This document shows, one piece after another, positions 17,973-59,679 of a DNA stretch of 64,000 bases. The position numbers were made by a program, and so were the translations under genes. Each line of letters starts with the position of its first letter. The stretch's first letter is position 1. Under the pieces are notes generated by a model. It was given only the letters and a program-made list of their open reading frames with translations, searched no databases and was not told the origin of the DNA. The stretch comes from an uncultured Chloroflexia bacterium (lineage in GTDB: Bacteria; Chloroflexota; Limnocylindria; Limnocylindrales; CSP1-4), in contig CAWBMD010000002.1 in assembly GCA_963789865.1 (NCBI GenBank), positions 322,543 to 386,542 of the forward strand, given 5' to 3'.

Positions 17973-19328
17973 GTGCGCTACGACTTCGTGATCATCGGCG
18001 CCGGCCCGGCCGGCGAGGCGGCCGCCTACCTCGCGCGCTCGCGCGGCGCCAGCGTCGCCGTCGTCGACCGCGACCTGTTCGGCGGGTCGTGCCCGCACTG
18101 GGGTTGCGTGCCGTCGAAGTCGCTGCTCAACGCGGCCGCGCTCCACGCGGCCGGGCGGCGACTACCCGTGGCGGCGGGCGTCCGACCGGCGCGACTACAT
18201 GATCAACCGGGTCGATCGCGACTACCCCGACGACACGGGACACGTGCGCGGCCTGCGCGACGCGGGCGCCGACACGTTCCGCGGGCGAGGGTCGTCTCGA
18301 CGGCCCGGGACGCGTGGTCGTGCGGCACGAGGACGCGTGAGCACGTGCTCGAGGCGCGCACGTCGTGCTCGCGGTCGGCTCCGAGACGAAGATGCCGCCG
18401 ATCGAGGGCATCGACGCGATCCGCACCTGGACGCAACCGGGACGCGACGGCCGCCCGCGAGCTGCCGGCGAGCCTCCTGGTGCTCGGCGGCGGCCCCACG
18501 GGCGTCGAGCTCGCCCAGGTCTACGCGCGGTTCGGCGTCCCGGTGACGATCGTGCAGTCCGGCGCGCGCCTGATCCCGACCGATCACCCGCGCAACTCCG
18601 ACGGCCGCGCTCCGCGCCATGCGAGCGCGACGGCGTCGACGTCCGCCTGGGTGTCCGCGCCGTCCGCGCCCGGCCGGCCGGGGACGCCTGCTCAGCCCGA
18701 CATGATCGAGCTCGACGACGGGAGCACCGCCGCCGGCCATGCCGTGCTGCTCGCGGTGGGGCGCACGATCCCGCTCGGGGGGCTCGGGCTCGAGACGGTC
18801 GGCCTCGAGGCCGGCAGCATCCCGCGCGACGGGCGGCTGCGCCTGCAGGACGGCCTCTATCTCGTCGGCGACTGCGCCGGGCCCGAGCTCCACACCCACC
18901 AGGCGCACTACCAGGGCGAGATCGCGGTCAGGATGGCGCTGGGCGACGACGTCGTTCCCGACTACCGCGCGCTGCCCCGGGCGACGTACACGGACCCGGA
19001 GCTGGCGTCGGTCGGGGTGACGCTCGACGAGGCGAGGGCGGCGGGCCTGGACGCGTTCGAGGCGGTGGCCGACTTCCCGACGACGGCAAAGGGCTACTCG
19101 GTCGAGGCGGACTTCGGCCACGTGACGATCGTCGTCGACCGTGGCAGCGGACAGCTCGTCGGGGCCGCGATGGCCACGCCGGACGCCTCCGCCGCGATCC
19201 ACGAATGCGTGCTCGCGATCAAGGCGCGCGTCCCGGTCGCCGTCCTCGCCGAGACGATCCACGCATTCCCGTCGACGTCGCGGATCCTCAACGGGCTGTT
19301 CGCCGAGGCCGGCGCGAACCTCGGGTGA
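17973..19328 (+). CDS. class I pyridine nucleotide-disulfide oxidoreductase (dihydrolipoamide dehydrogenase / mercuric reductase-like), 3-4 frameshifts
   Basis: GAGGAG then GTG at 17973. Pieces YDFVIIGAGPAGEAAAY, redox-active GGSCPHWGCVPSK, LLVLGGGPTGVELAQVY, LYLVGDC, and dimerisation domain PRATYTDPELASVG...IHAFPSTS. Confidence 0.7.
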   Translation: MRYDFVIIGAGPAGEAAAYLARSRGASVAVVDRDLFGGSCPHWGCVPSKSLLNAAALHAAGRRLPVAAGVRPARLHDQPGRSRLPRRHGTRARPARRGRRHVPRARVVSTARDAWSCGTRTREHVLEARTSCSRSAPRRRCRRSRASTRSAPGRNRDATAARELPASLLVLGGGPTGVELAQVYARFGVPVTIVQSGARLIPTDHPRNSDGRAPRHASATASTSAWVSAPSAPGRPGTPAQPDMIELDDGSTAAGHAVLLAVGRTIPLGGLGLETVGLEAGSIPRDGRLRLQDGLYLVGDCAGPELHTHQAHYQGEIAVRMALGDDVVPDYRALPRATYTDPELASVGVTLDEARAAGLDAFEAVADFPTTAKGYSVEADFGHVTIVVDRGSGQLVGAAMATPDASAAIHECVLAIKARVPVAVLAETIHAFPSTSRILNGLFAEAGANLG

Positions 19329-20445: not shown

Positions 20446-21193
20446 TCAGTCGTACGGAGCGGTGTCGGGCAGGGGCGGACCCGCGACTCCACGGACGCGG
20501 GCGCGGCTCGGGGCACCCGTCGACGCGGCGGACGCACGACGCTGGAGGCCGGCGAGCAGGCCTTCGGACGTCATCGCGAGCGCGGCCACGAGGACGACGC
20601 CACCGAACAGCATGCCGTCGTCGTTCTGGGCGATGCCGTCCACGATGAACCGGCCCAGGCCGCCCAGCGCGAACAGCGCCCCGAGCGTGACGGTCGCGAT
20701 CACCTGCACCGTGGACGAGCGGACACCGCCGAGGATCACCGCGAGGGACAGCGGGACCTCGACCCGCCGGAGGACCTGCGCCTCCGTGAGGCCCATCCCC
20801 CGGGCGGCCTGCACCACGTCGTCATCGACGCCGCGGATCCCCGCGTCGGCGTTCACGAGCACCGGCGGGATGGCGAGGACGACCATGGCGATGATCGTCG
20901 GGTACAGGGCGAACCCGTTGACCGGGTCGAACGCCTGGGTGATCGGCAGGACGAGCCCGATCAGCGCGAGCGACGGGACGGCGCGGCCGAAGTTCGCGAT
21001 GCCGACGGCGACCCCCGTCCCGCGCCGGGTGTGACCGACGTACGAGGCCGGCCGGGAGCGCGATCGCCAGCGCGATCAGGAGCGCGACGAGGGAGATCGC
21101 CACGTGCTCCTCGAAGCGCACGGGGATCCCGTTCGGTCCCGACCAGTTGGCGGGGTTCGTGAGCCATGCCACCGTCTCCGCGACGATGTTCAT
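20446..21193 (-). CDS. ABC transporter permease (osmoprotectant type), frameshifted
   Basis: Pieces MNIVAETVAWLTNPANW, GIANFGRAVPSLALIGL (other frame), and EAA-loop region DAGIRGVDDDVVQAARGMGLTEAQVLRRVEVPLSL. Confidence 0.7.
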
Positions 21194-23650: not shown

Positions 23651-25261
23651 ATGCCGGTGAGGCGCGGCTGGATCCTGTTCGCGGTGGTGCTCGGATCGGG
23701 CGTCGTCTTCCTCGACCAGACGGTCGTCAACGTCGCCCTCCAGACGATCGGGCGGGACCTGCCGGCCTCGGTGTTCGGCCGCCTCGAAGGCCTGACCTAT
23801 GTCACGAGCGGATACCTGGTCGTCCTCGCGGCGCTCCTCGTGCTCGCCGGCGCGCTCGGCGACCGGTTCGGCCGTCGTCGGGTATTCGAGATCGGCCTGA
23901 TCGGCTTCGGGGTGACCTCGATCCTGTGCGGCCTGGCGCCCACCCTCGAGGGCCTGATCGTCGCCCGCCTCGCCCAGGGGGCGGCCGGCGCCCTGCTCAT
24001 CCCACAGGCGCTGGCGATCATCACGGCGACCTGGGACGGCGAGGAGCGGGGACGCGCAATCGGGACCTGGGCTGCCGCCACCTCCGCCATCACGATCGCG
24101 GGCCCGCTTGTCGGCGCGCTGCTCGTCCAGGCGGTGTCCTGGCGCGCGGTCTTCTTCGTGAACGTGCCGCTCGTCGCCCTCGGGCTCTACGCGCTCCGCT
24201 ACGTGCCCGAGTCGCGCGATGAGCTGGCGACGGGCCACTTCGACTGGCTCGGTGCCGCCGTGATCGCGGTCGGCGTCGGCGGGCTTGCCTTCGGGGTGAC
24301 GCGTGGCCAGCAGCAGCGCTGGCTGGACCCATTCGCATTCGTTGCGATCGCGGTCGGGGCGCTGGCGCTGGTCCTGTTTCCCTGGCTCATGCGGCGGCAG
24401 CGCGATCCGCTGGTCCCACCGGACCTGTTCCGCTCGCGGGCCTTCGGGGTCATCAACCTGTCCACCTTCCTCATCTACGGCGCGTTGTACGTGAACCTGG
24501 TGTTCATGCAGCTGTATCTCCAGGGCGTCCTCGGGTACTCGCCGACGGCTGCCGCGCTCGCGCTCCTGCCCACCGGCATCCTGCTGACCCTGGTCTCGAC
24601 CCGTGCCGGGCGGCTCGCGGGGCGCCTCGGCGCTCGCCGCTTCCTGGTGGCCGGCCCGGCGCTCATGGCGGCGGGAGTCCTCTATCTCGCCCGTGTGCCG
24701 GCCACGAGCGGAGCGTGGCTCCTGGTGCCGGGGGAGGCTGTCTCGCTCCTGCCGCCGGCCGGATACCTCGTCGACATCCTGCCGGGCCAGCTCGTCTACG
24801 GGATGGGCCTCGCGCTCCTCGTCGCGCCCCTGTCCACGGCGTTGATGGGCTCGGTGCCACCGCGCCGGGCAGGCGTGGCCTCGGCCATCAACAACGCCGT
24901 CTCACGCGCGGGCGCCCCGCTCGTGAGCGCGCTCCTGTTCGTCGCCCTGAGCGCCGCCTTCTACCCCGCGATCGCCTCGCTCGTCCCGGGCCTCGACGTC
25001 TCCACACCCGCGTTCCGTGCGGCCGTCCAGCCGCTCACTCCACCCGACCCGGCGCTCGGGCCCGCCGTCGCGGCCGCCGCGACCGACGCGTCAACCGACG
25101 CCTTCCATCTCGCCATGCTGGCCACCGCGACGCTGCTCGCCATCGGGTCCGCCGTGAACGGCCTCGGCCTGCGTCCGGTCACGCCCAACGGCTCACCCGA
25201 GGGATCCGTGGACCGGGCCGCTCAGGCGCCCGCGTCCGCCTCACCGCCCCCGAGCGCGTAG
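23651..25261 (+). CDS. MFS transporter, DHA2 (EmrB/QacA-like, 14-TMS) drug:H+ antiporter family
   Basis: Intact, about 536 codons. Pieces LDQTVVNVALQTI, LGDRFGRRRVF, LAQGAAGALLIPQALAII and many hydrophobic helices. Confidence 0.85.
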   Translation: MPVRRGWILFAVVLGSGVVFLDQTVVNVALQTIGRDLPASVFGRLEGLTYVTSGYLVVLAALLVLAGALGDRFGRRRVFEIGLIGFGVTSILCGLAPTLEGLIVARLAQGAAGALLIPQALAIITATWDGEERGRAIGTWAAATSAITIAGPLVGALLVQAVSWRAVFFVNVPLVALGLYALRYVPESRDELATGHFDWLGAAVIAVGVGGLAFGVTRGQQQRWLDPFAFVAIAVGALALVLFPWLMRRQRDPLVPPDLFRSRAFGVINLSTFLIYGALYVNLVFMQLYLQGVLGYSPTAAALALLPTGILLTLVSTRAGRLAGRLGARRFLVAGPALMAAGVLYLARVPATSGAWLLVPGEAVSLLPPAGYLVDILPGQLVYGMGLALLVAPLSTALMGSVPPRRAGVASAINNAVSRAGAPLVSALLFVALSAAFYPAIASLVPGLDVSTPAFRAAVQPLTPPDPALGPAVAAAATDASTDAFHLAMLATATLLAIGSAVNGLGLRPVTPNGSPEGSVDRAAQAPASASPPPSA

Positions 25262-28007
25262 GCCACGACCTCGTCGATGGACATCGCGGCGCCCTCGGCC
25301 GCCAGGCGGACGACCTCGTCGGCGCCGAGCATCGCCCTCGCGGATGGCAGCTGCTGGTCGAGGAACTGGTCCACGAACGACGCGAGGCCGGCACCGGTGG
25401 CATTCGACAGGCTCCGGGCGGCCCCCCACAGCCGAGCGGCGCGCTCCGCGTCGCCGTCGTACGCGGCGAGGCCCGCCAGGTCGTCGAAGACCAGCGTGAG
25501 CCCGGCAGCGTCGCCCGACTCGCGGAACAGCCGCAGGGCGCCGTGGACCGACACGCGCGCCGCCTCGCCGTCGCCGTGCTTGAGCAGGGCCGCCCCCCTC
25601 ATGTGCAGCGCCCATGCCTCCATCGTCCGGTCGCCGACCCGCTGGTAGATCGCGAGCGCCTCGTCGAACTGGGCAATGCCGGCGGACGGATCGCCCTGGA
25701 AGTAGCGCTTGTTGCCCATCCCCCACAGGACGTTGGCCTGTCCCCGCTCGTCGCCGAGCGCCCGGTACAGCCCGAGCGCCTCGTCGAGCGCCACCCAGCC
25801 GGCACCGTCCGGATCGATGATCGCGGGCGCCTCGAGCGGGTCGATTGGCACCGTGAAGCAGAACGAGTAGTTGTAGAGGGCGTTGGCGAGCTCGACGCGG
25901 TTGCCGTCGGCGCGCCACAGCTCCACCGCCTCCGCGTAGGCGACGCGCATCGGCGCGATGTCCGCCTGCCACCAGCACACGCCTCCGAGCGCCTCCATGA
26001 GGCGCGCCCGCAGGACGGGCGACCTCACCGACCACGCGGCAGCCGCCATGGCATCGAGCCGGCGCCGCGCCTCGAACAGGTGGCCGCGCATCTGCCAGAA
26101 GCGCCAGAGGGCGAACGCGAGCCCGATTGCGAGATCCGCGTCCTCGGCGGCGGCACCACGATCGAGCGCAGCGCGGAGGTTGTCGTGCTCCAGCTCGAGC
26201 CTGTCGAGCCAGCGCCGCTGGTCCGGGCCGGCCAGCATCGGCCGCGCCTGCTCCGCGAGCCCCAGGAACCAGGTTCCGAACCGGGCGCGCACCACCTCGG
26301 CTTCGCCACGGGACGCCAGCATCTCCGCGGCGTACTCCCGGATGCTCTCCAGCATCTGGAAGCGCACCTCGGCCCCGTCGATCACCCGCAGCAGGCTCTG
26401 GTCCGCGAGCTCCCCGAGGCCGTCAAAGACGTCCCGGTCGAGCTCCTCGGCCGGGCCGCACACGGCCTCGGCAGCCTCGAGGTCGATGGCTGCGCGGAAC
26501 ACGGACAGCCGCTCCAGGAGGCGGCGGTCCCCGGCGTCGAGGATGTCGTAGCTCCACGCGATCGCGCCGCGCAGCGTCTGCTGCCGCTCGGGAAGGTCCC
26601 GCGAGCCGCCGCCGAGCGAGGCCAGCTGGTGGGTCAGCCGGGCGAGGATCGCGTCCGGGGACAGGACCTTGACACGTGCGGCCGCGAGCTCGATCGCCAG
26701 CGGCATCCCCCGCAGCCGCGCACAGATCGCGGCGACGGCTGGCGCATTGTCGTTGGTGACCTGGAAGTCGGGCTTGACGGCCGTGGCCCGCTCGATGAAC
26801 AGCCGCACGGATTCGTACACCGCGAGTCCCCCGGCGTCGACCTCCCGGTCCGCCACCGGCATCTGCGCGCGCTCGAGCGCCGAGAGTCCGGCCAGATCCG
26901 GCGGCGCCGGCAGCCCGGGCACCGGGTACTCGTGCTCGCCGGAGATCCGGAGGGCGGCCCTCGAGGTGACGACCAGCTTGAGGCCCGGGACCGAGCGGAG
27001 CAGGTCCGCGACCGCCGGCGCCGCCTCGACCACCTGCTCGAAGTTGTCCAGGACGAGGAGGACCGTCTTGCGGGCCATCCAGTCGACGACCAGGTCCCGC
27101 GCCGGCCGGCTTCCCGTCTCCGCGAGCCCGAGGGAGGCAGCGATCTGCGACGGCACGAGGCCGGGGTCTCGCACCGCGTCGAGGGGCACGAAGTAGACGC
27201 CATCAGGGAAGTCGTCGACGGCCGCGGCGGCGACCTCGAGCGACAGCCGCGTCTTGCCGGTGCCGCCCGGGCCGGTCAGGGTGACGAGCCGGTGACCGGC
27301 CAGGAGCGACAGGACGGCGGCGCGCTCCGCCTCGCGGCCGACGAACGAGGTGAGCTGGGCTGGCAGGTTGTTCGGCCGGGCGTCGACGGTCTTCGGCGGC
27401 GGGAACTCGCTGCGCAGGCCGTCGGCCACCAGCTGGTACAGGCGCTCCGGCTCGTCGAGGTCCTTGAGGCGGTGGCTGCCGAGGTCCCGGAAGGCGATAC
27501 CCTCCAGTGCCTCGTCGCGGTCGCGCACGAGCGCCCGCGTCGCGCCGGAGACGAGGACCTGGCCGCCGTGGGCGGCGGCGGCGATCCGGGCCGCGCGGTT
27601 GATATCGATGCCCACGAGCGAGCCGCCCTCGGTCCGCGCCTCGCCGGAGTGGACCCCCATCCGGACCCGGATCGTGGCATCGTCCGGCCACGGCTCCGCG
27701 GCGAGCGAGCGCTGCGCGGCCATGGCTGCGGCGATGGCCCCGCGCGCCGACCGGAAGATGACGAAGAACGAGTCGCCCTCGGTCCCCTGCTCCTCGCCGC
27801 CCCAGGCACTGAAGGCCTCGCGGAGGAGGGCGCGGTGGCGCTCCCGCACGGCTCCATACGCGCGCGTGCCGATCTCCTGCTCCAGCCGGGTCGATCCCTC
27901 GATGTCGGAGAACAGGAACGTCAGCGTCGCGCCGTCCGGCTCCGCGACCTGGACGGGCGGCTGGACGGGCGGTTGGACGGGCTCCGGGAACGGGGACGGT
28001 TCCTGCA
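25222..28007 (-). CDS. class III adenylate/guanylate cyclase domain - P-loop NB-ARC/AAA (STAND) - TPR repeat protein
   Basis: Intact, about 928 codons. Pieces LTFLFSDIEGSTRL, GDSFFVIF, GVHSGEA, IDINRAARIAAAAHGGQVLVS, and Walker A LTGPGGTGKTRL. The C-terminal half is rich in TPR-like helices. No C-terminal HTH is seen. Confidence 0.85.
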
Positions 28008-28173
28008 TCTGTGCTCCGCCGCGGACGAACCGGGTGGCGCCCTCGCGCACCGGCTGCAGGGCACATTCTGCGCGAACCGTCAACGCGCTGCCGTCGGGGT
28101 GCCGTCGGGGTGCTGGAGGGTGCGTGTAGGCTCTGCCGATCCACACGATCCACGACCGGAAGGGAACCTGTCC

Positions 28174-28560
28174 ATGCTCCACCAGCGCCGCGCCCACGCC
28201 ACGCTTCCGGTCTCGGACCTGGCGGCCGCCCGCGACTTCTGGGAGGACCGCCTCGGCTTCGTCCCGCTGGAGGAATATCCGACCGCCGTCCTGTACGCCG
28301 GTGCCGGCGGCTCCGTGTTCGCGATCTCCAGGGCATCCGCGCGGTCAACAGGCGGCAACACGCAGATGGCGTTCACCGTCCCCGACATCGGGGCGGAGGT
28401 CGCCGAACTCATGGGCCTGGGCATCGCGTTCGACACCTACGACATGCCCGGGCTCCGGACGGTCGACGGGATCGCCGAGGTGGGCGGCAACCGGGTCGCG
28501 TGGTTCAGGGACCCGGACGGCAACGTGATCGGCGTGATCGAGTTCGGCGGCCGCGCCTGA
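28174..28560 (+). CDS. VOC family protein
   Basis: ATG at 28174. Pieces AHATLPVSDLAAARDFWEDRLGF and VAWFRDPDGNVIGVIEF. It forms the tail of an otherwise spurious 1281-aa ORF. Confidence 0.75.
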   Translation: MLHQRRAHATLPVSDLAAARDFWEDRLGFVPLEEYPTAVLYAGAGGSVFAISRASARSTGGNTQMAFTVPDIGAEVAELMGLGIAFDTYDMPGLRTVDGIAEVGGNRVAWFRDPDGNVIGVIEFGGRA

Positions 28561-28631
28561 CCGCGCGGTCCTTCGCCGGGCGACCGCGCCCGGCGACGCG
28601 CGCTGCTGTCGCGCCCGGCTACCGCGCCCGG

Positions 28632-30038
28632 CTAGGGGACCCGCCGCTGGGTCGGGAGGATCACCTCGAAGCACGTCCCTCCCGGCCCGGACCTGACCTC
28701 GATCCGGCCCCCGTGGCGGCCCACGACGTTGTGCGAGATGTGGAGCCCGAGGCCGGTGCCGCTGCCCGGCGGCTTCGTGGTATAGAAAGGCTCGAAGATC
28801 CGCTCGCGGACCTCGGGCGGCATGCCCGGCCCGTCGTCGCAGATCTCGACGACCAGGTCCGCGTCCCGGACGAAGGCGTGGATCCGGATGCGGCCGTGCC
28901 CGCCCATCGCGTCGATCGCGTTGTCGAGGATGTTGGTCCACACCTGGTTGAGCTCGCTGCCGAACGCCTCGATCGCGGGGAGCCCTGGTTCGTAGTCTCG
29001 CTCGATCTCGATCCCCGACTTCAGCTTCGGGCGCAGGATCACGAGCGTGTTGTCCAGGCCGACCGTCACGTCCACCTGCTGGACCGGCGCCTGGTCCATG
29101 TACGAGTAGTCCTTCACGGCCTTCACGATCTCGGAGATGCGGCGGGCGCCCGTGCCCACCTCGTCGACCAGCGCGTGGATCTCGCTCCCGGACGCGACCC
29201 ACGCCGCCACGACGCCGAGGTCTGAGCCCGGGAACGCCTCGGCGGCGGGCCCAAGGTGCCCCGGTGCCCACCCCCCCGCGGCCAGCGTTGCCGCGAGCTC
29301 CGTGGCGTCCGCGACACCGCGTCCCTCCAGAAACCTCTCCAGGTCGTCGGCCCGGTCGCCCACCTCGAGCGGGTCGACGGAGGCCTCGGAGGCGGCGAGA
29401 CGCGCGATCTCGGTGCCCAGTTCGCCCACGACCGCTGCCTGGCGGGCATCCGCAACGACACGGCCCACGTCGCGCGTGGCGACGGCCCACCGGTCGAGGG
29501 CGTCGCGAAGCAGACCGGAGCTGCGCTGGACGGCCGCGGCGGGGTTGTTCAGCTCGTGCGCGAGCCCCGCGGACAGCGTCCCCAGGGCAGCCAGCTTCTC
29601 CCGCTCCCGGAGCAGCGCCTCGGTGCTCCGGAGGCGGCCGGTCACGGTCCGGATCATCGATAGCGCGGCCGAGGGGCGGGTGCGCACGAGCTCGAGCACG
29701 ACGTCCCTGCTGATCGTGATGATGCGGCTCGCTTCGATGGCACGGATGGTCGCCATCCGGGGTGATCCCTCGAGGACAGCCATCTCGCCCACGATCTCGC
29801 CGGGGCCCAGCCGGGCGATCGGGACGTCGGAGGATCGCGACCGCTTCACGACCTCCAGCTCGCCGGCCGTGATCACGAACAGCGTCTCGCCGTCGTCGCC
29901 CTCGGCGGCAACCACCTCGCCCACCGCCAGGTCGGCCGTGTCGCAGGCACCGGCGATCCAGTCCAGGTCATCTTCGTCGAGCGCCGCGAACAGCGGCACC
30001 CGGCGGAGCAGCGAGCGGTCTGCCGGCGAGAGCGTCAT
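28632..30038 (-). CDS. cyclic-nucleotide-binding domain sensor histidine kinase
   Basis: Intact. cNMP-binding [12 protein letters not shown]...[24 protein letters not shown]-box [18 protein letters not shown] boxes [17 protein letters not shown] and GSGTGLGL. Confidence 0.9.
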
Positions 30039-30080
30039 CGGGCGGGGGCCGTCATCGGGCAGGGGTCGTCATCGGGCGCC

Positions 30081-31744
30081 CTACAGCCCTGCGATGTGCT
30101 GGTGGACGAACTGGACCGCCATCGACCCCTCGCCCACGGCCGACGCGATGCGCTTCACCGAGCGTGACCGCACGTCCCCGGCGCTGAAGATCCCCGGGAC
30201 GCTCGTCTCGAGCATGAACGGCTCGCGCAGGAGCGGCCACCCGGGCACCTTGTCCCCGCTCCTGGTCAGGCCCGGGCCGGTCACCACGAACCCGGCCCCG
30301 TCACGTTCCACGATGCCGCCCAGCCAGTCCGTCCGTGGCGCCTGCCCGATGAATACGAACATCGCGGCCACCGGGAGCGTCTCGCGAACCTTCGGCTCGC
30401 TGTCCTCGACCTCCAGCGTCTCCAGCGCCTGGCCCCCGCCGACCGCGGTGACCGACGCGCGCAGCCGGACGGAGATGTTCGGGGTCGCCTCGATCTGGTC
30501 CACGAGATAGGCGGACATGCCGGCGCCCAGGGACCCGCCCCGGACGAGGATCGTCACGTGCTCCGCAAACCGGGCCAGGTACACCGCCGCCTGGCCGGCC
30601 GAGTTGCCGCCCCCGACGACAGCGACCCGCTGGCCGCGGTAGAACGCCGCCTCCGTGGTCGCGGCCCCGTAGTAGATGCCCGAGCCCGCGAGCCGGTCCG
30701 CGTCGGGCAGGTCCAGCTTCCGGTACTCCACGCCGGTCGCGATGAGCAGCGCCTGGCAGCTCAGCCGCGCACCGTCGCTCCAGGGTGACGACCTTGTACC
30801 GGTCGTCGATCGCGAGACCGGCGACGCCCTGCGGCGTGAGCACCTCCGCGCCCAGGCGGGTCGCCTGGGCCAGGGCTCGACGCGCGAGGTCCGCACCCGT
30901 GAGCCCGGCCGGGAAGCCCAGGTAGTTCTCGATCCGCGACGTCGTGCCGGCCTGTCCGCCAGGCGCCTCCCGCTCGACGAGCAGGGTCTTGAGCCCCTCG
31001 GAGGCACCGTACACGGCGGCCGCGAGCCCCGCGGGTCCGCCGCCCGCGATGACCAGGTCGTAGTACGGGAGCGCCGCGTGCTGTGCGCAGCCCGACGCGC
31101 TCGGCGATCTCGGCGTTCGACGGCCCGACGAGGTGGCTGCCGTCGGCGAGAACGACGAGCGGCTCGTGCGCGGCGTCGACGCCGGCGCTCGCGGCCAGCG
31201 CGATCGCCTCGGGGTCCGTCTCGATGTCGAGCCAGCGGTACGGGAGCTGGTTGCGCGCGAGGTAGTCCTTGATGGCGTGGCCGCGCGCCGACCACGCGTG
31301 GCCGACCACCCGGATCCCCTCGAACGGCGGGCGGAAGCCGGCCTGCCAGTCCGAGAGCAGGTCCTCGAGAACCGGGAACAGGCGCTCCTCGGGCGGGTCC
31401 CAGGGCTTGAGCAGGTAGTGGTCGAGGTGGATGGTGTTGATCGCCGCGATGGCGACCTCCGTGTCCGCGTAGGCCGTGAGCAGGACCCGTTTCGCGTCGG
31501 GATGAACGTCCGCGACGGCCTCGAGGAACTCGATGCCCGTCATGCCCGGCATCCGCTGGTCGGCCAGGAAGAGTGCGACCGGCGTGCCCCGCAGCTTCAG
31601 GCGCCGCGCCGCGTCGAGGGCAGCCTCGCCGCCTCCGGCGGCCACGATGCGGTAGTCGGAGCCGAAGCGGCCACGCAGGTCACGTTCGACGGCGCGCAGA
31701 ACCTGCGGATCGTCGTCGACCGAGAGGATGACCGGCTTGTCCAT
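30081..31744 (-). CDS. response-regulator receiver domain fused to a thioredoxin-reductase-like flavoprotein lacking the CxxC motif (2 frameshifts)
   Basis: GGGAGA then ATG at 31744. Pieces [11 protein letters not shown] and [13 protein letters not shown], then [55 protein letters not shown] and PGIFSAGDV. The stop lies 43 nt upstream of the kinase start. Confidence 0.8.
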
Positions 31745-31909
31745 TGTCGTCTCCCGCCGCATGACACGCTGCCTGAGGCCCGAACTCTAGCGACTCGACG
31801 GTGAGGGCGTCAGCGGGATGCCATTGACCGCTGCCGCTCGGGTACGCTCCGCGCGTCTCGGACGGGCGGCCGGCGCCGGCGCCCCCGCGGAGCCTGTGAG
31901 GAGCGAACG

Positions 31910-32191
31910 ATGAGCGACCGAACCGAAGCGCTGGCCCGGATCCTCGAGCGGGCGGAGCGCGTGCACGCGGTGGTGGCGGAACAGGCGGGCGGGGCCGATG
32001 CGGACTGGGCGCTGTTCTACGCGTGGTGGCTCCTGAACTGGTCCGACTTCGCGTCCGTTCTGGGCCGGACGCCGTCCCTGGCGGGGCTCACGGTGGAGCT
32101 CACGAACCTCGACGCCGCGTATCGGGCGGGCCCGCGGACACAGGCCTGGCCGATGGCGTATGCGGAGGCCCTCGACGGCGGCGAGGCCTAA
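31910..32191 (+). CDS. hypothetical protein (93 aa)
   Basis: Intact ORF with protein-like composition (WALFYAWWLLNWSDF). No family recognised. Confidence 0.45.
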   Translation: MSDRTEALARILERAERVHAVVAEQAGGADADWALFYAWWLLNWSDFASVLGRTPSLAGLTVELTNLDAAYRAGPRTQAWPMAYAEALDGGEA

Positions 32192-33108
32192 CCAGTCGCG
32201 GCGGCCTCGACGGCCCGCGTGTCGATCGTGACGACCCCCAGGCTCCCGATCCGTCCCGCGATCTCGACCTGTCGTTCGCCGGGCGGCACCCCGGCGCCCG
32301 CCCGGTCCCAGGTCGCGCGACTCACGAGAAGCTCGCCGGGGCCGGCTTGGCTGCCGAGACGGGCCGCGATGTTGACGGTGTCGCCGAGGGCCGTGAAGTC
32401 CAGCTTCTCGTCGCCGCCGACGACGCCGACGAACGCTTCGCCGGTGTGGACCCCGGCTCCGACCATGAGGCCCCGGCGGGCCAGCCCCTCCCGCTCGACC
32501 CCCGCCAGGATGGCCCGACCCGCCTCGATTGCGCGTTCGGCGTGGTTCTCGCCGGTGATCACCGGGATGAACAGGGCCATCACGCCGTCGCCGAGGAACT
32601 TGTCGATGATCCCGCCGTACAGGTCGATGGCCTTCGCGGCCGCCCCGTAGTAGTCCTGGATGAGCCGCCGGTACGCGGACGCGGACGAACGCTCGGCCAT
32701 GCCCGTCGAACCGCGGACATCCGCGAACACAACGCTGATCTCGACCTCCGCGCCGCCGGGACGCTTCGAGAGGTGGCCGAAGCACGCCCTGCACAGCAGC
32801 GGGCTGTCGCGCATCGGGCCGTGCCAGAACAGACGTGCCAGCGCTCCGCCCGGGCCGTGGAACGGCGAGGCGCACACCTTGCAGCGTGGCGACGACGGAA
32901 CGTGGCGCCAGAAGCGGCGCACCTCACGCAGGCTCGGGTCCTCGCCCGTCAGCAAGGCCCGCCATTGCTCGGCAACCTGATCGTTCTCGCCCACCGGCTC
33001 GATGGCGACCACCTCCCTTCGAGGCCCGGTTCGCAGCATCATCCACCCGCGATCGCGGCTGTCAAGCAATTCCCGCTCGATGCCCGAGTGCGGCATCATG
33101 TCCGCCAT
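32188..33108 (-). CDS. class III adenylate/guanylate cyclase with an N-terminal CxxC...CxxC zinc-ribbon-like segment
   Basis: Intact. Pieces PRCKVCASPFHG...LLCRACFGHL, VVFADVRGSTGM, IDKFLGDGVMALF, GVHTGEAFVG and LGDTVNIAARL. The start (33108 / 33165 / internal) is uncertain. Confidence 0.85.
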   Translation of the reverse strand: MADMMPHSGIERELLDSRDRGWMMLRTGPRREVVAIEPVGENDQVAEQWRALLTGEDPSLREVRRFWRHVPSSPRCKVCASPFHGPGGALARLFWHGPMRDSPLLCRACFGHLSKRPGGAEVEISVVFADVRGSTGMAERSSASAYRRLIQDYYGAAAKAIDLYGGIIDKFLGDGVMALFIPVITGENHAERAIEAGRAILAGVEREGLARRGLMVGAGVHTGEAFVGVVGGDEKLDFTALGDTVNIAARLGSQAGPGELLVSRATWDRAGAGVPPGERQVEIAGRIGSLGVVTIDTRAVEAAATG

Positions 33109-33742
33109 GATCCCGCCCAATGACCGCGGTTCCCGGAATCGCGGAACCCTCCTGCTCGCCGACATCTCGGGCTACACGGCCTTCCTCAACGGCGTCGCCC
33201 AGGCCCATCGGGCACTGATCGTCGAAGCCGACGAGCCGCCCCCGGCGTACGCCGTCCTGTCGCGGCTGCTCGACGCGATGCTGGCGGCGATCGAGCCGGC
33301 GTTTCGACTTGCCAAGTTCGAGGGCGACGCGCTGTTCGCGGTGGAGGATGCCGCCCTGGCCCACGGCGCGGCGATCCTCGACTGCATCCGCGCGTGCTAC
33401 GACGCCTTCCGCGAGCAGCTGGGCCTCGCCGGGTCGCAGTGGACGTGCACCTGCACGGCCTGCGCCCGGATCCACGACCTGGACCTCAAGTTCGTCGTCC
33501 ACCACGGCGACTACGTGGTCCAACGGATCGCGGGCCAGCAGGAGCTCGCCGGGCCCGACGTCATCGTGGCCCACCGGCTGCTGAAGAACCACGCCCGGGA
33601 CCTGGTCGGCGACCGGTCCTACCTGCTGCTCTCGGACGCGGTGCTCGAGGCGCTCGACGTCCCGACGGAGGGGATGCTGGCGGGCGTGGAGACCTACGAT
33701 GACCTGCCATCGCTGGGGGTGAACGTCCTCGCGCTCACCTGA
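33098..33742 (+). CDS. DUF2652 (cyclase-like) domain protein
   Basis: Intact. Pieces LLLADISGYTAFL, LAKFEGDALFAV and WTCTCTACARIHDLDLKFVVHHGDYVVQRIAGQQELAGPDVIVAHRLLKN. Paralog of the N-terminal half of 16562-17745. Confidence 0.8.
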   Translation: MSAMIPPNDRGSRNRGTLLLADISGYTAFLNGVAQAHRALIVEADEPPPAYAVLSRLLDAMLAAIEPAFRLAKFEGDALFAVEDAALAHGAAILDCIRACYDAFREQLGLAGSQWTCTCTACARIHDLDLKFVVHHGDYVVQRIAGQQELAGPDVIVAHRLLKNHARDLVGDRSYLLLSDAVLEALDVPTEGMLAGVETYDDLPSLGVNVLALT

Positions 33743-36191: not shown

Positions 36192-37169
36192 TCAACCGTG
36201 GCTCGCCGGGAGCGGCCGCGTCGGGATGACGGCGACCCAGCGCCCGTCGCGGCCGGGATAGTGTCCCTCGGGTCGCCTCCAGGCGATGTAATTCCGGGTC
36301 ATCCCCTTCATGTCGTAGAAATGGCCGGGCGGGTTGACGTGGCCCCAGATCGAGCTGACGCGCGGGTACCAGGGGTCGACGATGTACGCGCCCGTGAACG
36401 CCGCCTTGGGGTTCGTCGCCAGGTCGCCCGTCGCACGGTAGCCGGTCATGACCCACGTGTGGGCGCCCCACCACGCGAGCAGGAGAACGGGCTCGTGCGT
36501 ATCGGAGAGGGCGATGCCGGCGGCACGGAGCGCCGCGGCCCGGGTGGCGTACGTCTTGACGACGTAGCCCGGAGCGCCATAGGCGGCGAGAGCCTTCGTC
36601 ATGGCCAGCGGCCCCCAGCCACCGTTGTGCGAGTCCGCGCGCGTGGTCCACGCACCGATCCGGCTCTCGATCTTCCGCTGGACCGTGTTGGACGCCTTGA
36701 CCAGGCCCATCGTCGCCAGGGCGCCGGTCAGCCCGGCAGGGGCACACATCTCCTTCGTGATCTGGCTCGAGAAGACCGCGTTCCCGTTCCGTGCGAGGTT
36801 GATGTCGATCGGCCCGCGGGGTGGCGTCGGAGACGGACTCGGAGTCGCGCTCGGTGATGGACTCGGTGAGGGGCTCGGCGACGGACTCGCGGCGGCCGTC
36901 GGCGGCGGGGCGGCCGAGGCGGATGGCGCCCGTGTCGGGGCCTCGATCGCGAGCGACGGGACTTGACTCGCCGCCCCACCGCCCCCGGGGGCGGTGACCG
37001 GCTCAGGCGGGCGGGTGAGGCGGCCGACGGCCACCACCCCGGCGACGACGGCAACCAACAGCCCGGCCGTGACGGCAACGCGACCCATCGTGGGGCGACG
37101 CCGGCCGGGCTGCGTGGATCCCGTGCTCACAGGCTGCATCGGCTGATCTGATGGTCGGGCGCGCGCCAT
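36192..37169 (-). CDS. membrane-anchored papain-fold (peptidase C39-like) protein with a Pro/Ser linker
   Basis: Intact. TM VAVTAGLLVAVVAGVVAV. Linker SPSPSPSPSPSATPSPSP. Candidate Gln/Cys SSQITKEMCAPAGL and His GAHTWVMTGY. Confidence 0.6.
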   Translation of the reverse strand: MARARPSDQPMQPVSTGSTQPGRRRPTMGRVAVTAGLLVAVVAGVVAVGRLTRPPEPVTAPGGGGAASQVPSLAIEAPTRAPSASAAPPPTAAASPSPSPSPSPSPSATPSPSPTPPRGPIDINLARNGNAVFSSQITKEMCAPAGLTGALATMGLVKASNTVQRKIESRIGAWTTRADSHNGGWGPLAMTKALAAYGAPGYVVKTYATRAAALRAAGIALSDTHEPVLLLAWWGAHTWVMTGYRATGDLATNPKAAFTGAYIVDPWYPRVSSIWGHVNPPGHFYDMKGMTRNYIAWRRPEGHYPGRDGRWVAVIPTRPLPASHG

Positions 37170-37177
37170 TGTGACTG

Positions 37178-39327
37178 TCAGCCCGGCACGACGTCGTCGG
37201 GAACCAGCGGCAGCGAGCGGAGACGGACGCCGGTCGCGGCGAAGATCGCGTTCGCGATCGCGGGTGCGATCGCGAGGATCGGCGTCTCGCCCGCGCCCGC
37301 CGGTGGGATCTCGGGGTGGTCGAGGAGGATCGACCTCCACCGGGGGCACGTCGTCGATTCGCGGCACGCGGTAGGCGGCGAACGACGCGTTGCGGATGAC
37401 GCCTGCCTCGAACCGGATCGCCTCGAACAGCGCCGCCCCGAGCCCCATGACGACGGCGCCCTCGACCTGGTTCGCGAGCCCGTCGGGGTTGACGATCGCG
37501 CCGCAGTCGAAGGCGGCCACGACCCGGTCGATCACGAGCCGGCGGTCCTCCCCGACGTGGACCTCGACGGCCGTCGCGACGCGGGCCCCCTTCTCCACCC
37601 CGCAGGCGATCCCGAGGCCCCGGCCCGGGTTGGACGGCCGCCCCCAGAGGATGCGGTCGGCGGCGGCGTGGAGCACGTCCCGCAGGCGCTGGTCGGCGAG
37701 GTGATCGAGCCGCAGGTCGAGCGGATCGACGCCCATCGCCGCCGCCAGCTCGTCCATCGCCGACTCGCGCGCGAAGTGGTTCGCCGTCGCCGCGAGCGCG
37801 CGGTACGAGCCCTGGCGCAGCGGGGAGTCGGCCGGCTGGAAGTCCAGGCGCTGGGTCGGGACTCGTACGGCCCCACGAGGCCGAACATCCCGGAGTTGGT
37901 GTTGCGCATCTCCCAGGCCGTGATCGCATCGCCGGTCGGCACCGCCTCGAATGTCGATGACGGCAGCGGGCCGCAGGTGGCCCTCGGTGAACTCCTCGGG
38001 GCGCGTCCAGCGCACCTTCACGGGTCGCCCGACGGCTCGGGCGAGGCGCGCCGCCTCGATGGCCAGGCCACCCGCGTGCTTGCCACCGAACCCGCCGCCC
38101 GTGTCGGGGGCGATGACGCGCACGCGCTCCTCGGGCACCCCGAGCGCCTCGGCCAGCTCCGCCCGGACACCGAACGGGACCTGCGTGCCGGTCCAGACCG
38201 TGAGCCGGCCGTCGTCCCGCCACGAGGCGAGTGCGACCCGCGTCTCGAGGGGGACGTGGGCGATGTAGGCCGTCGTGTACGTCGCGGCGAGGTACGTGGG
38301 CGCGATCTCCAGCGCCGCGTCGACGTCGCCGGCCTCGCGGTGGAACGATCCGCCCCAGCCCTCCTCCTCGAGCGGGTGCTCGCGGAGCCACGCGACGAGC
38401 CCGTCGTCGGACGGCAGTGACGGGCGGTCCCACTCGGCCACAACCAGGCCGAGCGCCCGCCCGGCGAGGAACGGGTTGGGCGCCACGACGCCGACGAGCC
38501 CGTCCTCGCTGGACGACGGTCACGCCCGGCAGCGCCCCGGCGGCCGAGGTGTCGACGCGGCGGAGCGTCGCCGCCGGGGCCGGTGGCCGGAGCAACCGGC
38601 CGTGGAGCATCCCCGGGACGGAGAGGTCGGACGGGTAGCGGTGTGCGCCCGTCACGATCGCGGGACCGGTGACGCGCCGCGCGTTCCGACCGGCCAGGCG
38701 CCCGGTCTCTCCGCCGGGCGCCGGCCCTCCGCCGTCGATCGTCTCCACGCGACGGAGGCCGCGGACGAGCTCGCCGTACGTCACCGCGCGATCGCCGACG
38801 GCCTCGCAGACCGCGCCACCCGACGCCACGAGCGCGAGAGGCTCGATCCCGAACCGGTCCGCCGCGAGCCGCACCAGGGTCGCTCGCGCGCCCGCGGCGA
38901 CCCGGCGGAGCAGCTCGCCCGCGTCCGGCATCGACCGGCTGCCGAACGTGCCCTCGTCGTACGGGCAGATGTCCGTGTCGCCCATCACGAGCCGGACCGA
39001 CGCGAGCGGCACCCGCAGCTCGTCGGCGACCAGCACCGAGAGGCCGGTCCGGTTGTCCTGGCCCACGTCGACCTTGCCGGTGAACGCCGTCACGAGCCCG
39101 TCCTCGCCGACGTGGAGCCAGGCACCGGCGCTCGTCGTCCAACCGTCCGCCGCAGGCTCCGGCTCGTGGACCGCGACCAGTCCCGGCGGCAGGACGTCGA
39201 ACCAGTCGCGCTCATCGGCCGGGGCCAGGTCCCAGGGCCGCCTGCGGCTCCCAGCGGTCGGTCGCCCGCTCGTCGCCGACCGGGGCAGGCGCGAACGGCG
39301 GAGCGGCGGGCGCCGGCTCTCCGGCAT
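37178..39327 (-). CDS. molybdopterin-binding large subunit of a xanthine dehydrogenase / aldehyde oxidase family enzyme (IorB-like), at least 4 frameshifts; start uncertain
   Basis: Pieces GKVDVGQDNRTGLSVLVADEL, MGDTDICPYDEGTFGSRS, VIAPDTGGGFGGKHAG, AFDCGAIVNPDGLANQVEGAVVMGLG and the tail GETPILAIAPAIANAIFAATG in another frame. Confidence 0.7.
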
Positions 39328-39811
39328 CGGCCCCGGTCCGGGTCAGCTCAGCCGCCCGATGCACCGCGCTCAGGATCCGGGGATAGGTGCAGCAGCGGCA
39401 GGCGTTGGGGTGGAGCGCCGCCTTCACCCCGGCATCGTCGGGATCCAATTCGTGCTCGAGGAGCGCGACGGTGCGCATCACCATCCCGGCCGTGCAGTAC
39501 CCGCACTGGAACGCCCCGACCTCGAGGAACGCCTGCTGGACCGGGTGGAGCATCCCGCCGGCGTCGAGCCCCTCGACCGTCCGCACCCCCCGGCCGGCGA
39601 CCTCCGACAGGTGCACCTGGCAGGCCGTCACCGGCTCGCCGTCGAGCAAAACGGTGCAGGCGCCGCACTCCCCCTCGCCGCAGCCGGGCTTCGCACCCGT
39701 GAGGCCGAGCTCGTCGCGCAGGACGAACAGCAGCGAGCGGTCCGGTCCCGGCGCCACCATGCGCGGGACGCCGTTCACGACGAGCGTGGCGGTGGCGGCG
39801 GGATCGGTCAT
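39212..39811 (-). CDS. (2Fe-2S)-binding small subunit of the molybdenum hydroxylase
   Basis: Pieces GCGEGECGACTVLLDGEPVTAC and FQCGYCTAGMVM. The true stop may lie upstream of 39212, because the tail overlaps the large-subunit start region. Confidence 0.85.
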   Translation of the reverse strand: MTDPAATATLVVNGVPRMVAPGPDRSLLFVLRDELGLTGAKPGCGEGECGACTVLLDGEPVTACQVHLSEVAGRGVRTVEGLDAGGMLHPVQQAFLEVGAFQCGYCTAGMVMRTVALLEHELDPDDAGVKAALHPNACRCCTYPRILSAVHRAAELTRTGADAGEPAPAAPPFAPAPVGDERATDRWEPQAALGPGPGR

Positions 39812-42992: not shown

Positions 42993-43126
42993 CGTCTGGT
43001 CACGGAGGAGTGAGGACCAGCGGCTGGTGGTCTCGCCCTATTCGTCGTCTTCCTCGCTCTCCCTGACCGGCCGCGCTCATCGACGGGCGCGGCTCCAAGA
43101 CGGGCGAGTCGCATGACGCTCACCGC

Positions 43127-43141
43127 TACAGTAGGCGCGTG
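43127..43141 (+). promoter_or_regulatory. candidate -10 element TACAGT placed 6 nt before the GTG start (leaderless-type arrangement)
   Basis: TACAGT at 43127-43132, GTG at 43139, no Shine-Dalgarno sequence. The same ctacagta box precedes the paralog at 62677. Confidence 0.35.
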
Positions 43142-44339
43142 GAGAGATACGAGATCGCCGACGCGGCCGTGCGGGCCGGGGTCAGCATCGACGAGCTGCG
43201 TCGGCTTGTCGACCTGGGCATCCTCACGCCGGACGCCGAGCACCGGTTCACGTCGGGTGACGTCCGCCGCGTCGGGATGGTCGCCAGCCTGACGGCCGCG
43301 GGCATCCCGCTCGACGGCCTGGCCGCGGCCATCCGGAGCGGCCAGGTCTCGCTCGACTTCCTCGACGAATCCGCCTATGAGCGGTTCTCGGCGCTCAGCG
43401 GGTCGACGTTCGCCGAGTTCGGTGAGCGCACCGGCATCCCGGTCCCCTTGCTGATGCTCATCCGCGAGGCTGCCGGTTCGCCTCCGCCGCGTCCGGACGA
43501 TCTGATCCGCGACGATGAGCTGCCGTATGCCGCGTTCATCGAGGCGCAGGTCAACGCCGGGTTCGATCCGGCGGCCAGCCAGGGACTGCTCCGGGTCCAG
43601 GGCGACAGCCTGCGCCGCATGGCCGAGACGGAGACGGCCTGGTGGCGATCCGAGGTCATCATGCCGGCCGTCGCGGCGGGCAAGCGGCCCGACGAGATCC
43701 TCGGGGCCGACTTCGCGAATCGGATGAGCATCCTGGCCGAGCAGGCCATCCTCGGGATGTACCACCTCCAGCAGGCACAGGCCTGGACCGGCACCATCAT
43801 CGAAGGCCTGGAGATGCAGCTGGCCGCCGCCGGCCTGCACAGCCGCCTCGAGCATCCGCCGGCGATGTGCTTCCTGGACGTCACCGGCTACACGAGGCTG
43901 ACACAGGAGCGGGGCGACACCGCGGCGGCTGGACTCGCCGGAGCAGCTCGGTCGACTCGTGCAGCGATCGTCGGTCAAGCACGGCGGCCGGCCCATCAAG
44001 TGGCTCGGCGACGGGGTCATGCTGTTCTTCCCGGATCCCGGACGCGGCGTGGTGGCCGCCATCGAGATGTCGGCGGGCGTCGCCGAGGCCGGGCTGCCGC
44101 CGGCCCACGTCGGCCTCCACGCCGGGCCGGTGATCTTCCAGGACGGCGACTACTACGGCCAGACCGTGAACCTGGCCTCCCGCATCGCCGACTATGCCCG
44201 GCCGGGCGAGGTGCTGGTCAGCCAGGAGGTCGTCGCGGCATCGGCCGGGGCCGAGGTCGTCTTCCGCGAGATCGGCCCGGTCGAGCTCAAGGGCGTGACC
44301 GGTTCGATCCGCCTGCACGCCGCCACGAGGCCCGGCTAG
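43139..44339 (+). CDS. MerR-like HTH - helical linker - class III nucleotidyl cyclase domain protein (1 frameshift)
   Basis: Pieces RYEIADAAVRAGVSIDELRRLVDLGILTPD, MCFLDVTGYTRL, KWLGDGVMLFF, GLHAGPVIF and YYGQTVNLASRIA. An extra G in CCGGAG at 43938-43943 shifts the frame. Confidence 0.75.
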
Positions 44340-59093: not shown

Positions 59094-59679
59094 GTGTCGG
59101 CCTCGCCTGCGAAGAAGGCGGTTGGTCCCGCCGACGACCTGGACGTGAGCTCGGGCCTGGATCGGGAGCTGAACCACAGCGACGAGTCCCGCCGCCTCCG
59201 GGAGGCGCTGATCGGCGGTCCCGTCGCGGAGGCCGCACCGGACCCTCGCGTGCTCGCTGCGATGCAGCGCGTCCCGTGCCCCACCGGGATGAGCTTCCCC
59301 GACGCCTACCGGGCTGCATTGATGATCGCGGCACGAGCGACGGTCAGGCATCGACGGCTGACGCCCGGTTGATCAAGTCGATGATCGACTTGGAGGCCGA
59401 CATTGGCGCAACAAGCTCCACGGCGGCAGCAAGCCCGAGGTCGGGCGCCTGGCCGACTACCTCGCGCTCATCGGGTACCCCGTGCCCGACGAGGCCGAGC
59501 CCGGCCACGTGGGCGACACGATCCGGGACCTGCGGCCGAGGCTGGAGCGGGGGCTCCCGCTGACCGCGCCGCAGCAGGCACGCTGGGACCGCCTCGTGGA
59601 GCACAACCGGTTCGACTGCGCCGGCATGCGGGCGGTCTGCCTGCGGGCGACACGGGAGCTGGACGAGGCGGCCGAATGA
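59094..59679 (+). CDS. possible RNase-H-fold (YprB/PolB-exonuclease-like) domain protein, degenerate and frameshifted
   Basis: GGGGAG then GTG at 59094. Pieces DDLDVSSGLD (where DxE would be), GMSFPDAYRAALMIAARA, SMIDLEADI, then KLHGGSKPEVGRLADYLALIGYP...WDRLVEHNRFDCAGMRAV in a third frame. Only the last roughly 90 residues look convincing. Confidence 0.35.

Follow-up and report, generated by a model that had tools for sequence, protein, structure and literature searches.

The locus at positions 28632 to 31744 of a 64,000-nucleotide stretch from an uncultured Chloroflexia bacterium (contig CAWBMD010000002.1; the whole stretch is referred to as the window) encodes a histidine kinase with a cyclic nucleotide (cNMP)-binding domain and a response regulator in which a receiver is followed by a thioredoxin (Trx) fold and a flavoprotein body resembling thioredoxin reductase (TrxR), both without their redox cysteines. 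In our reading, to which we assign a probability of about 0.6, the locus is a self-contained module in which a cNMP signal would be relayed through His~P and Asp~P to gate an NAD(P)H-dependent flavoenzyme that does not act on disulfides, and the two frame breaks found in the regulator gene are assembly indels. There is nothing unique about the window locus, which belongs as an ordinary member to a very large family: the same widespread and strongly conserved module appears to couple a cNMP sensor to a flavoenzyme either via a His-Asp phosphorelay or by direct fusion.

A preliminary description of this DNA had reported the kinase and the loss of the CxxC centre in its partner. That observation is partly confirmed, being right at the coordinates it quoted while the gene as assembled is broken twice. 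Its interpretation is supported and turns out stronger than originally stated, because both the loss of cysteines and the pairing with the kinase hold across phyla.

Organization of the locus and architecture of the regulator

The locus consists of the following elements:

31744..30081, minus strand: response-regulator gene (ATG at 31744, TAG at 30083-30081), encoding a receiver, a cysteine-less Trx fold and a TrxR-like body
30039..30080, minus strand: spacer of 42 nucleotides (nt) from the regulator stop to the kinase ATG
30038..28632, minus strand: histidine kinase gene, an intact open reading frame (ORF) of 468 amino acids (aa) for a soluble protein with a cNMP-binding domain, a dimerization and histidine phosphotransfer (DHp) domain with a helical insert, and a catalytic and ATP-binding (CA) domain

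Both genes lie on the minus strand and are co-directional, as had been described, with the regulator first and the kinase second. The spacer, previously given as 43 nt, measures 42 nt, against 3-28 nt in relatives. After removal of two extra bases (see below), the corrected regulator comprises a receiver (REC), a cysteine-less glutaredoxin-like Trx fold and a TrxR-like flavoprotein:

31391..31729, minus strand: receiver, aa 6-118 (Pfam Response_reg, PF00072; 54.5 bits, cut-off 30.2)
31559-31561, minus strand: codon of the predicted phospho-acceptor Asp62
31094..31312, minus strand: glutaredoxin/mycoredoxin-like Trx fold, aa 145-217 (NCBIfam TIGR02200)
31283-31294, minus strand: CxxC position of the Trx fold, reading W151-S-A-R154
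30126..31062, minus strand: TrxR-like two-domain FAD/NAD(P)H body, aa 228-539 (Pfam Pyr_redox_2, 123 bits)
31027-31044, minus strand: FAD motif GGGPAG
30648..30665, minus strand: AATTEA, aa 360-365, at the site of CATCDG in TrxR; no cysteines
30585-30614, minus strand: NAD(P)H motif

The fusion of a receiver to a TrxR-like domain had been recognized before, and both domains are present, but the intervening Trx fold (aa 145-217) had been missed. Homologues number in the thousands (down to E = 0), and the features of both genes are far beyond chance. For comparison we used 80 loci from species-representative genomes at 49-66% identity, which together with close relatives yield 83 aligned orthologues. 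The loci derive from Chloroflexota, Cyanobacteria (Nostoc, Anabaena), Acidobacteriota, Gemmatimonadota, Planctomycetota, Burkholderiales, Bacteroidota (Chitinophaga, Chryseobacterium, Dyadobacter, Hymenobacter) and Actinomycetota (Streptomyces, Williamsia). In addition, an exhaustive HMMER search was run on 1.84 billion cluster representatives, from which the best 150 representatives (of 50% identity clusters) were used.

Apart from Asp62, the key residues of the receiver are D10-D12, T90 and K113, and the acidic pocket, D62, the Thr and the Lys are conserved in the 83 orthologues. The Trx fold is matched by TIGR02200, a model of actinobacterial mycoredoxins and glutaredoxins, with an E-value of 3.2e-9 and 37 bits (below the cut-off of 89.5). 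At its CxxC position an RWSP/xWSxx motif is conserved, with xWSPx in most relatives against W-S-A-R in the window.

The structure was predicted with AlphaFold2 (AF2), using 63 homologues, for P0001, the 553-aa product of the closest intact relative fetched (locus L001; 93% nucleotide identity), which is 97% identical to the corrected regulator protein. The model has a mean predicted local distance difference test (pLDDT) score of 91.3, and at residues 144-217 it shows a Trx-fold-like beta-alpha-beta-alpha-beta-beta-alpha pattern. The top Foldseek match of the complete model is full-length AhpF (about 520 alignment columns). The body superimposes on TrxR structures with template modelling (TM) scores of 0.95-0.96, the best match being annotated as the flavin-reducing (FR) conformation from L. 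lactis. Sequence comparison also gives genuine TrxRs as the nearest proteins of solved structure (E about 1e-45 in a search of PDB sequences).

None of the NCBIfam models is dedicated to the regulator or the kinase. The best-scoring model for the regulator is TIGR01292 (thioredoxin-disulfide reductase), with 238.3 bits against a cut-off of 343.45, while TIGR03140 (AhpF) reaches 181.6 bits against 502.9. Across phyla the regulator body retains 49-66% identity, and the cofactor motifs GxGxxG, GG[GA]NSAGQAA and GD (AGDV) are conserved in the orthologue alignment.

Loss of the redox cysteines

The codons 30665..30648 read AATTEA, exactly as had been reported, and both redox-active cysteines are replaced: in an alignment with E. 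coli TrxB C135 corresponds to A360, C138 to T363 and the acid catalyst D139 to E364. The quoted stretch was said to lie in a single frame; this is true of that stretch, but the gene as a whole runs through three frames because of two insertions.

A CxxC at the active site is found in 0/83 orthologues from at least eight phyla and in 0/150 of the best representatives. Instead, the orthologues carry the motif Y-G-[AGS]-x-x-x-E-A at the former active site, with Glu at position 364 in 128 of 143 representatives. Judged by these sequences the loss of CxxC is family-wide and not a local mutation. Nor does the alignment of the 83 orthologues contain any conserved cysteine column: the commonest cysteines are Cys329 (59/83) and Cys368 (58/83; Tyr in the window), of which Cys329 is the sole cysteine of the window regulator and is also a non-catalytic cysteine in E. 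coli TrxR. With W-S-A-R in the Trx fold and AATTEA in the body, both redox centres of the AhpF-like ancestor layout are therefore free of cysteines.

Two further TrxR motifs, defined in part after PMC9025218, have disappeared. The HRRxxxR motif that binds the 2'-phosphate (HRRDGFRAE in TrxR) is replaced by VRGxS...MSxY in the orthologues, and the FF position for docking of thioredoxin reads AF, LS, QA or PA. Because the cofactor motifs are kept while CxxC, HRRxxxR and FF are lost and no cysteine column is conserved, the body has, on this comparison of sequences, the look of a functional FAD/NAD(P)H protein, but one incapable of intramolecular dithiol-disulfide chemistry. The earlier suggestion that the output is not classical thioredoxin reduction is thereby upheld, by the motif changes, the sub-threshold TIGR01292 score and the single, non-conserved cysteine alike.

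Frame breaks in the regulator gene

As assembled, the regulator gene spans three frames in a three-frame translation: 31744-31085 (receiver and next domain), 31084-30778 (start of the FAD-binding part) and 30777-30081 (remainder). Aligned with L001, the window shows only two length differences, both of them single extra bases in the window:

~31084, minus strand: first frame break, one extra base (CGC-A-CAG), its placement being ambiguous within CGCACAGCAC
30777, minus strand: second frame break, one extra C (GAG-C-GAC)

When the proteins of three relatives (L083, L084 and L002) are matched to the window by tblastn, the frame switches at both of these sites. Deletion of the two extra bases results in an uninterrupted ORF of 553 codons without a stop, and intact 553-aa homologues (71-97% identity) match the corrected sequence through both breaks. 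In the corrected frame, the changes relative to L001 are mostly synonymous in the two post-break segments (21:1 and 36:14 synonymous to non-synonymous), and compared with three further relatives the ratios after the breaks are no worse than before them.

At least five further genes are frame-broken in the 64-kb window, which amounts to about one break per 8 kb:

59385-60766, plus strand: ARPP-1 domain gene, split between two overlapping ORFs near 60150
36195-39342, minus strand: aldehyde-oxidase/xanthine-dehydrogenase gene, cut in the hammerhead domain near 38519
43067-44336, plus strand: cyclase, with the regulatory domain and the C-terminal part of the catalytic domain in different frames, near 43900
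20476-21193, minus strand: ABC permease, with frame changes relative to the L083/L084 orthologues
17973-19322, plus strand: Pyr_redox_dim gene, with frame changes relative to the L083/L084 orthologues

The frequency of such breaks points to an error-prone consensus and fits uncorrected long-read errors. The window is part of a 738-kb contig, the assemblies of relatives carry long-read-style contig names, and a frame-split gene occurs in the related contig L002 too.

The same breaks could be read as two real frameshifts that have turned the regulator into a true pseudogene in this genome, leaving the kinase as an orphan. Two independent 1-nt insertions, neither of them in a homopolymer run, and several other broken genes in the window would be in line with a decaying genome. 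We nevertheless hold this to be improbable. Removal of just two bases restores a perfect ORF with mostly synonymous differences after the breaks, the partner kinase is unbroken, as are the large genes nearby, the gene is intact in all close relatives at 90-97% identity, and the density of breaks on a 738-kb contig, together with the split gene in L002, fits consensus errors of long reads. Given the synonymous changes, the other broken genes and the long contig with long-read-style names among the relatives, we consider it quite likely that both breaks are errors of assembly or consensus rather than marks of a pseudogene, and so the organism probably makes an intact 553-aa regulator. An exact-match look-up of the window kinase, aimed at an independent assembly of the same strain, returned no record.

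Programmed frameshifting was considered separately and rejected: at both sites the relatives (90-97% identity) are single-frame, and each break is just one inserted nucleotide, without a slippery run.

The kinase and its pairing with the regulator

The features of the kinase are as follows:

29679..29924, minus strand: cNMP-binding domain, aa 39-120 (Pfam cNMP_binding, PF00027; 67.5 bits, cut-off 27.5)
29739-29789, minus strand: phosphate-binding cassette, aa 84-100
29556..29558, minus strand: H-box codon for His161, which is predicted to accept the phosphoryl group
29235..29447, minus strand: four-helix insertion in the DHp domain, about 70 aa (aa 198-268), from the AF2 model
28647..28955, minus strand: CA domain, aa 362-464 (Pfam HATPase_c, 98 bits; N, G1, F and G2 boxes)

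The cNMP domain was described as complete and located ahead of the H-box, which holds true: the motif that had been quoted covers aa 84-100, well before His161. In characterized cNMP domains (PKA, CAP) the Gly-Glu and Arg-x-Ala elements of the cassette contact the cyclic phosphate and the ribose. The cassette residues G84, E85, R94, A96, R99 and A100 are invariant in 41 kinase homologues, and G-E...R-x-A is kept in the cross-phylum kinase orthologues. In the Foldseek search the model of this domain resembles CRP-type domains with a TM-score of 0.84.

Across 63 full-length orthologues the H-box shows at least 90% conservation, and Pfam HisKA matches weakly around it (18.6 bits, below the cut-off of 26.9). 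This low score may be due to the insert, whose helices (198-216, 223-238, 245-254 and 259-268; pLDDT about 90-96) separate the helix of the H-box from the second helix of the DHp domain; a Bacteroidota orthologue (L070) has an equivalent insert. The CA domain carries the conserved motifs LNQVWTNxxDNAxDA, DxGPG, FEPFFTTK and GTGLGL, and the kinase lacks membrane segments. Among the kinase matches listed (at least 120), nearly all are 468 aa long and all have the same two Pfam domains. Foldseek matches of the kinase model are ZraS, HK853, CckA and CRP-type cNMP domains, and no solved structure in that search joins a cNMP domain to a kinase core.

That the two genes form one operon and a cognate pair had been proposed from their arrangement in the window. 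A tblastn search with the window kinase shows that a full-length cNMP-kinase orthologue adjoins the regulator in 74/82 loci from at least eight phyla. The kinase usually lies 6-120 nt downstream of the regulator gene, and directly upstream of it in Bacteroidota and some Gemmatimonadota. This conserved adjacency supports the kinase as the cognate partner of the regulator.

After clustering all ORFs from the 80 loci, no conserved third (substrate) gene was found, which suggests a general cellular acceptor rather than a dedicated partner. What recurs is the regulator, the kinase (with antisense shadow ORFs) and, in 14 loci, a zf-UBP protein. The latter is a Cys/His-rich protein of about 90 aa (PF02148, E 5e-15), co-directional with and beside the regulator in 14/80 loci from six phyla (L072:5639-5911, L004:7731-8045, L065:7690-7965 and 11 others) and absent from the window; it could be a facultative third component or target. 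In Streptomyces polychromogenes (L072:8392-9087) there is no adjacent cNMP kinase, and the following ORF resembles, by eye, a truncated haemoglobin.

A sister family with directly fused cNMP domains

In many representatives the match is confined to residues ~140-551 of the query, although their overall length is the same. In a Pfam scan of ten of these, 9/10 have a cNMP_binding domain at the N-terminus where the receiver would be, and 1/10 contains a receiver. In the cNMP-fused proteins the Trx fold is dead and the body CxxC-less as well, Glu again stands at the former active site, and identity to the regulator is 36-41% over the full length. As far as the sequences tell, this sister family independently links cNMP to the flavoprotein effector; the same effector would therefore be wired to cyclic nucleotides in two ways.

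The acceptor Asp is kept in 40/97 full-length representatives and is lacking in 57/97, of which about 18 are cNMP-fused. Pseudo-receivers without the Asp, the DD pocket or the Lys are also found on the same flavoprotein body (for instance P0127, P0141, P0173 and P0231).

One likely member of the sister family has been studied, the sole source of biochemical data in the literature searched, namely ATII-TrxR from the Atlantis II brine pool, which we place there by its described size (552 aa) and domain layout. It is an FAD-containing dimer that oxidizes NADPH and NADH with similar Km, and it is reported to reduce DTNB (5,5'-dithiobis-(2-nitrobenzoic acid)), with a kcat of 5.6 s-1, and a thioredoxin, with a kcat of 28 s-1 (PMC6544261). 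Its authors did not discuss the absence of a canonical CxxC (PMC6544261), and the redox pairs that they proposed (Cys206-Cys223 and Cys376-Cys467) have no equivalents in the window regulator.

These activities speak for another reading, in which the regulator would have remained a thioredoxin or disulfide reductase, working through non-canonical or intermolecular thiols, with phosphorylation switching the reduction of thioredoxin. The nearest solved relatives by sequence being genuine TrxRs (E 1e-45), the name 'thioredoxin reductase (NADPH)' given to the family by automated pipelines and the induction of the Streptomyces member SCO7298 ('trxB3') by polysulfide (PMC9952706) all lean the same way. 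We consider this very improbable, however, as CxxC occurs nowhere in the family (0/83, 0/150), no cysteine column is conserved and only Cys329 is present in the window protein, the FF docking and HRRxxxR motifs are not kept, and the score for TIGR01292 stays below the cut-off (238 against 343). The ATII-TrxR paper, moreover, is silent on the missing CxxC, and its proposed cysteine pairs are without counterparts here.

Proposed mechanism

In the module that we favour, cAMP or cGMP, plausibly from the adjoining class III cyclases, would bind the N-terminal domain of the kinase and alter the autophosphorylation of His161, after which the phosphoryl group would pass from His161 to Asp62 of the receiver. 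Phosphorylation is predicted to reposition the unit of receiver and Trx fold on the flavoprotein, and this movement might gate either the rotation between the flavin-oxidizing (FO) and FR domain arrangements or access to the flavin. Such gating would switch an NAD(P)H-dependent flavin oxidoreductase that operates without dithiol-disulfide exchange and in which the conserved Glu364 would occupy the place of the former CxxC/Asp catalytic unit. As acceptor of the electrons, a general one (O2, a quinone, a metal chelate or a small redox protein) is envisaged.

Several points weigh against this proposal. The reduction of thioredoxin and DTNB by ATII-TrxR, if correct and general, favours a thiol-reductase output. 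The electron acceptor and the activity of the REC-fused members are predicted only, and neither the ligand (cAMP or cGMP) nor the sign of regulation can be read from sequence. By analogy with AhpF and the TrxR-thioredoxin complex the dead Trx fold may be a tethered pseudo-substrate, its role in gating being conjecture. At least four loci with adequate flanks have no adjacent kinase, and the cyclase neighbours are not kept family-wide but only in close relatives or this lineage. Finally, the position of both insertions outside homopolymer runs sits uneasily with the assembly indels that the proposal includes.

The flavoprotein body might alternatively serve as a sensor or scaffold, its FAD/NAD(P)H reporting the redox state so that redox and cNMP signals are integrated (as a phosphate sink or through protein-protein interaction). 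Such a role would suit the death of both redox centres (Trx-fold and TrxR CxxC), the lack of a dedicated substrate gene conserved nearby and the absence of the acceptor Asp in more than half of the full-length representatives (57/97, including the roughly 18 cNMP-fused ones), which suggests regulatory tinkering around a binding module. It is unlikely in our view, since the cofactor motifs, Glu364 and the whole body are highly conserved (49-66% across phyla), as is typical of a working enzyme, and NAD(P)H is turned over by ATII-TrxR of the sister family (PMC6544261).

Beyond the window locus, we tentatively raise a more general and rather speculative possibility: the Trx fold with its CxxC-less body may be a second-messenger effector enzyme, gated by the pseudo-substrate and placed under interchangeable N-terminal switches, which would provide a direct, so far undescribed route from cAMP/cGMP to redox or NAD(P)H metabolism in many phyla and bypass transcription. 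The switches would be a receiver driven by the cNMP kinase, a pseudo-receiver or a fused cNMP domain. As for the effector itself, it would consume NAD(P)H as a flavin oxidoreductase, for example generating H2O2 as an oxidase or donating electrons to a general acceptor, and the pseudo-substrate would gate the rotation of its catalytic domain.

Genomic neighbourhood

The window has a GC content of about 72%, and among named relatives those of Candidatus Limnocylindrales, Chloroflexota, come nearest (72-78% identity). Around the operon the following genes are found:

25222..28197, minus strand: class III cyclase-AAA ATPase-TPR gene, 991-aa ORF (Pfam Guanylate_cyc, AAA_16, TPR_12)
32188..33165, minus strand: class III nucleotidyl cyclase of 325 aa, upstream of the regulator gene (Pfam Guanylate_cyc, 56 bits)
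33107..33742, plus strand: DUF2652 protein (Pfam PF10851, 93 bits), which also adjoins in L001 and L084

The first of these genes (of the AAA/STAND type) lies downstream of the kinase, beyond a convergent glyoxalase-family gene, and its homologues align from 28008, inside the ORF. It takes the same position in L002 and L083, and the relatives also show HTH_77; in L002 it is called as two genes, which is probably another frame error. Based on its domains, the encoded protein is a candidate source of cNMP.

The 325-aa cyclase lies between the regulator operon and the DUF2652 gene. A stretch of about 850 nt there, and the cyclase with it, is missing from the close relative L001 (93% nucleotide identity; compare L001:2656-2700), so by this sequence comparison the presence of this cyclase beside the cNMP-sensing operon is a strain-level gain or loss. 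DUF2652 has been predicted to be related to class III cyclases (PMC4886424). Divergent from the regulator lies a 93-aa ORF (31910-32191, plus strand) without a Pfam match, and a 93-aa gene occupies the equivalent position in L001. A scan for sigma-70 promoters and intrinsic terminators in 28400-32300 found none, a result that is uninformative at 72% GC.

Significance and comparison with known systems

Most known bacterial outputs of cAMP and cGMP are CRP-type transcription factors. If an acceptor is found and the enzyme proves to be switched by phosphorylation or cNMP, the module would join second messengers to redox metabolism at the post-translational level. At the same time an annotation error that is pervasive would be put right, and the 'TrxB-type' class of regulators, present in censuses since the 2000s, would be explained. 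The module is carried by tractable hosts such as Streptomyces, Nostoc/Anabaena and Chitinophaga pinensis.

As an architecture the family is on record, but it is functionally uncharacterized and widely mis-annotated: public annotations name it 'thioredoxin reductase (NADPH)' or else 'FAD-dependent oxidoreductase', and in Streptomyces it counts as a third trxB. Fusions of a receiver to TrxR have already been listed as 'TrxB-family' response regulators (PMC9739842, PMC5847659). In P2CS-based reviews 'TrxB' is one class among the enzymatic response regulators, with S. coelicolor SCO7298 paired with the kinase SCO7297 (PMC9739842), and a cyanobacterial census reports one TrxB-family regulator in a thermophilic cyanobacterium (PMC9953108). 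For SCO7298 the literature searched yielded expression data only: it is induced by acid shock (PMC2631018) and, under the name trxB3, by polysulfide.

The censuses in the literature searched give the architecture only, with no mention of the dual loss of CxxC, the dead Trx fold, the cNMP kinase or the sister family. Likewise, no functional study of a REC-TrxB regulator or of cNMP-binding histidine kinases was found there, in agreement with the earlier statement that no experimental work on such a His-Asp pathway was known. Nor does that literature describe the double link to cNMP, the death of both redox centres or the exchange of N-terminal switches.

Among the known systems, the 'TrxB-family' regulators (SCO7298/SCO7297; P2CS/P2RP and the REC-thioredoxin-reductase class of Galperin) have the same receiver and Pyr_redox_2/TrxB-like body. 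TrxB itself (TIGR01292; E. coli 1TDE/1F6M, L. lactis 5MH4) has the same two-domain fold (TM 0.95, root mean square deviation 1.5 A), the motifs GxGxxG, GxGxxA and GD, and about 30-35% identity with the regulator body. The regulator differs in having AATTEA for the CATC disulfide site, Glu for Asp139, VRGxS for HRRxxxR and no FF, as well as some 20 inserted residues ahead of the GD motif, an added N-terminal receiver and Trx fold, and a score below the cut-off.

AhpF resembles the regulator in that an N-terminal Trx fold is tethered to a TrxR-like body. However, AhpF has two Trx folds with CxxC in addition to a TrxR-type CxxC, and passes electrons to AhpC, whereas the regulator has one Trx fold, both centres without cysteines and an added receiver (TIGR03140, 182 against 503). 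The sister family (ATII-TrxR and a Cupriavidus metallidurans relative) shares the Trx fold, the CxxC-less TrxR-like body and the link to cNMP, but its cNMP-binding domain is directly fused and there is no receiver, making it a one-component version.

Finally, the TrxR-like ferredoxin-NADP+ reductases (TRLF; B. subtilis YumC, Chlorobaculum FNR; 3LZW, 3AB1), which are characterized by a C-terminal subdomain stacking on the flavin, have neither receiver nor Trx-fold domains and show weak kinship to the regulator (E 7e-18 to 9e-16, against 3e-45 for TrxRs). They combine the TrxR fold without CxxC with transfer from flavin to a non-thiol acceptor, and thus offer a precedent for the function of a cysteine-less TrxR fold.

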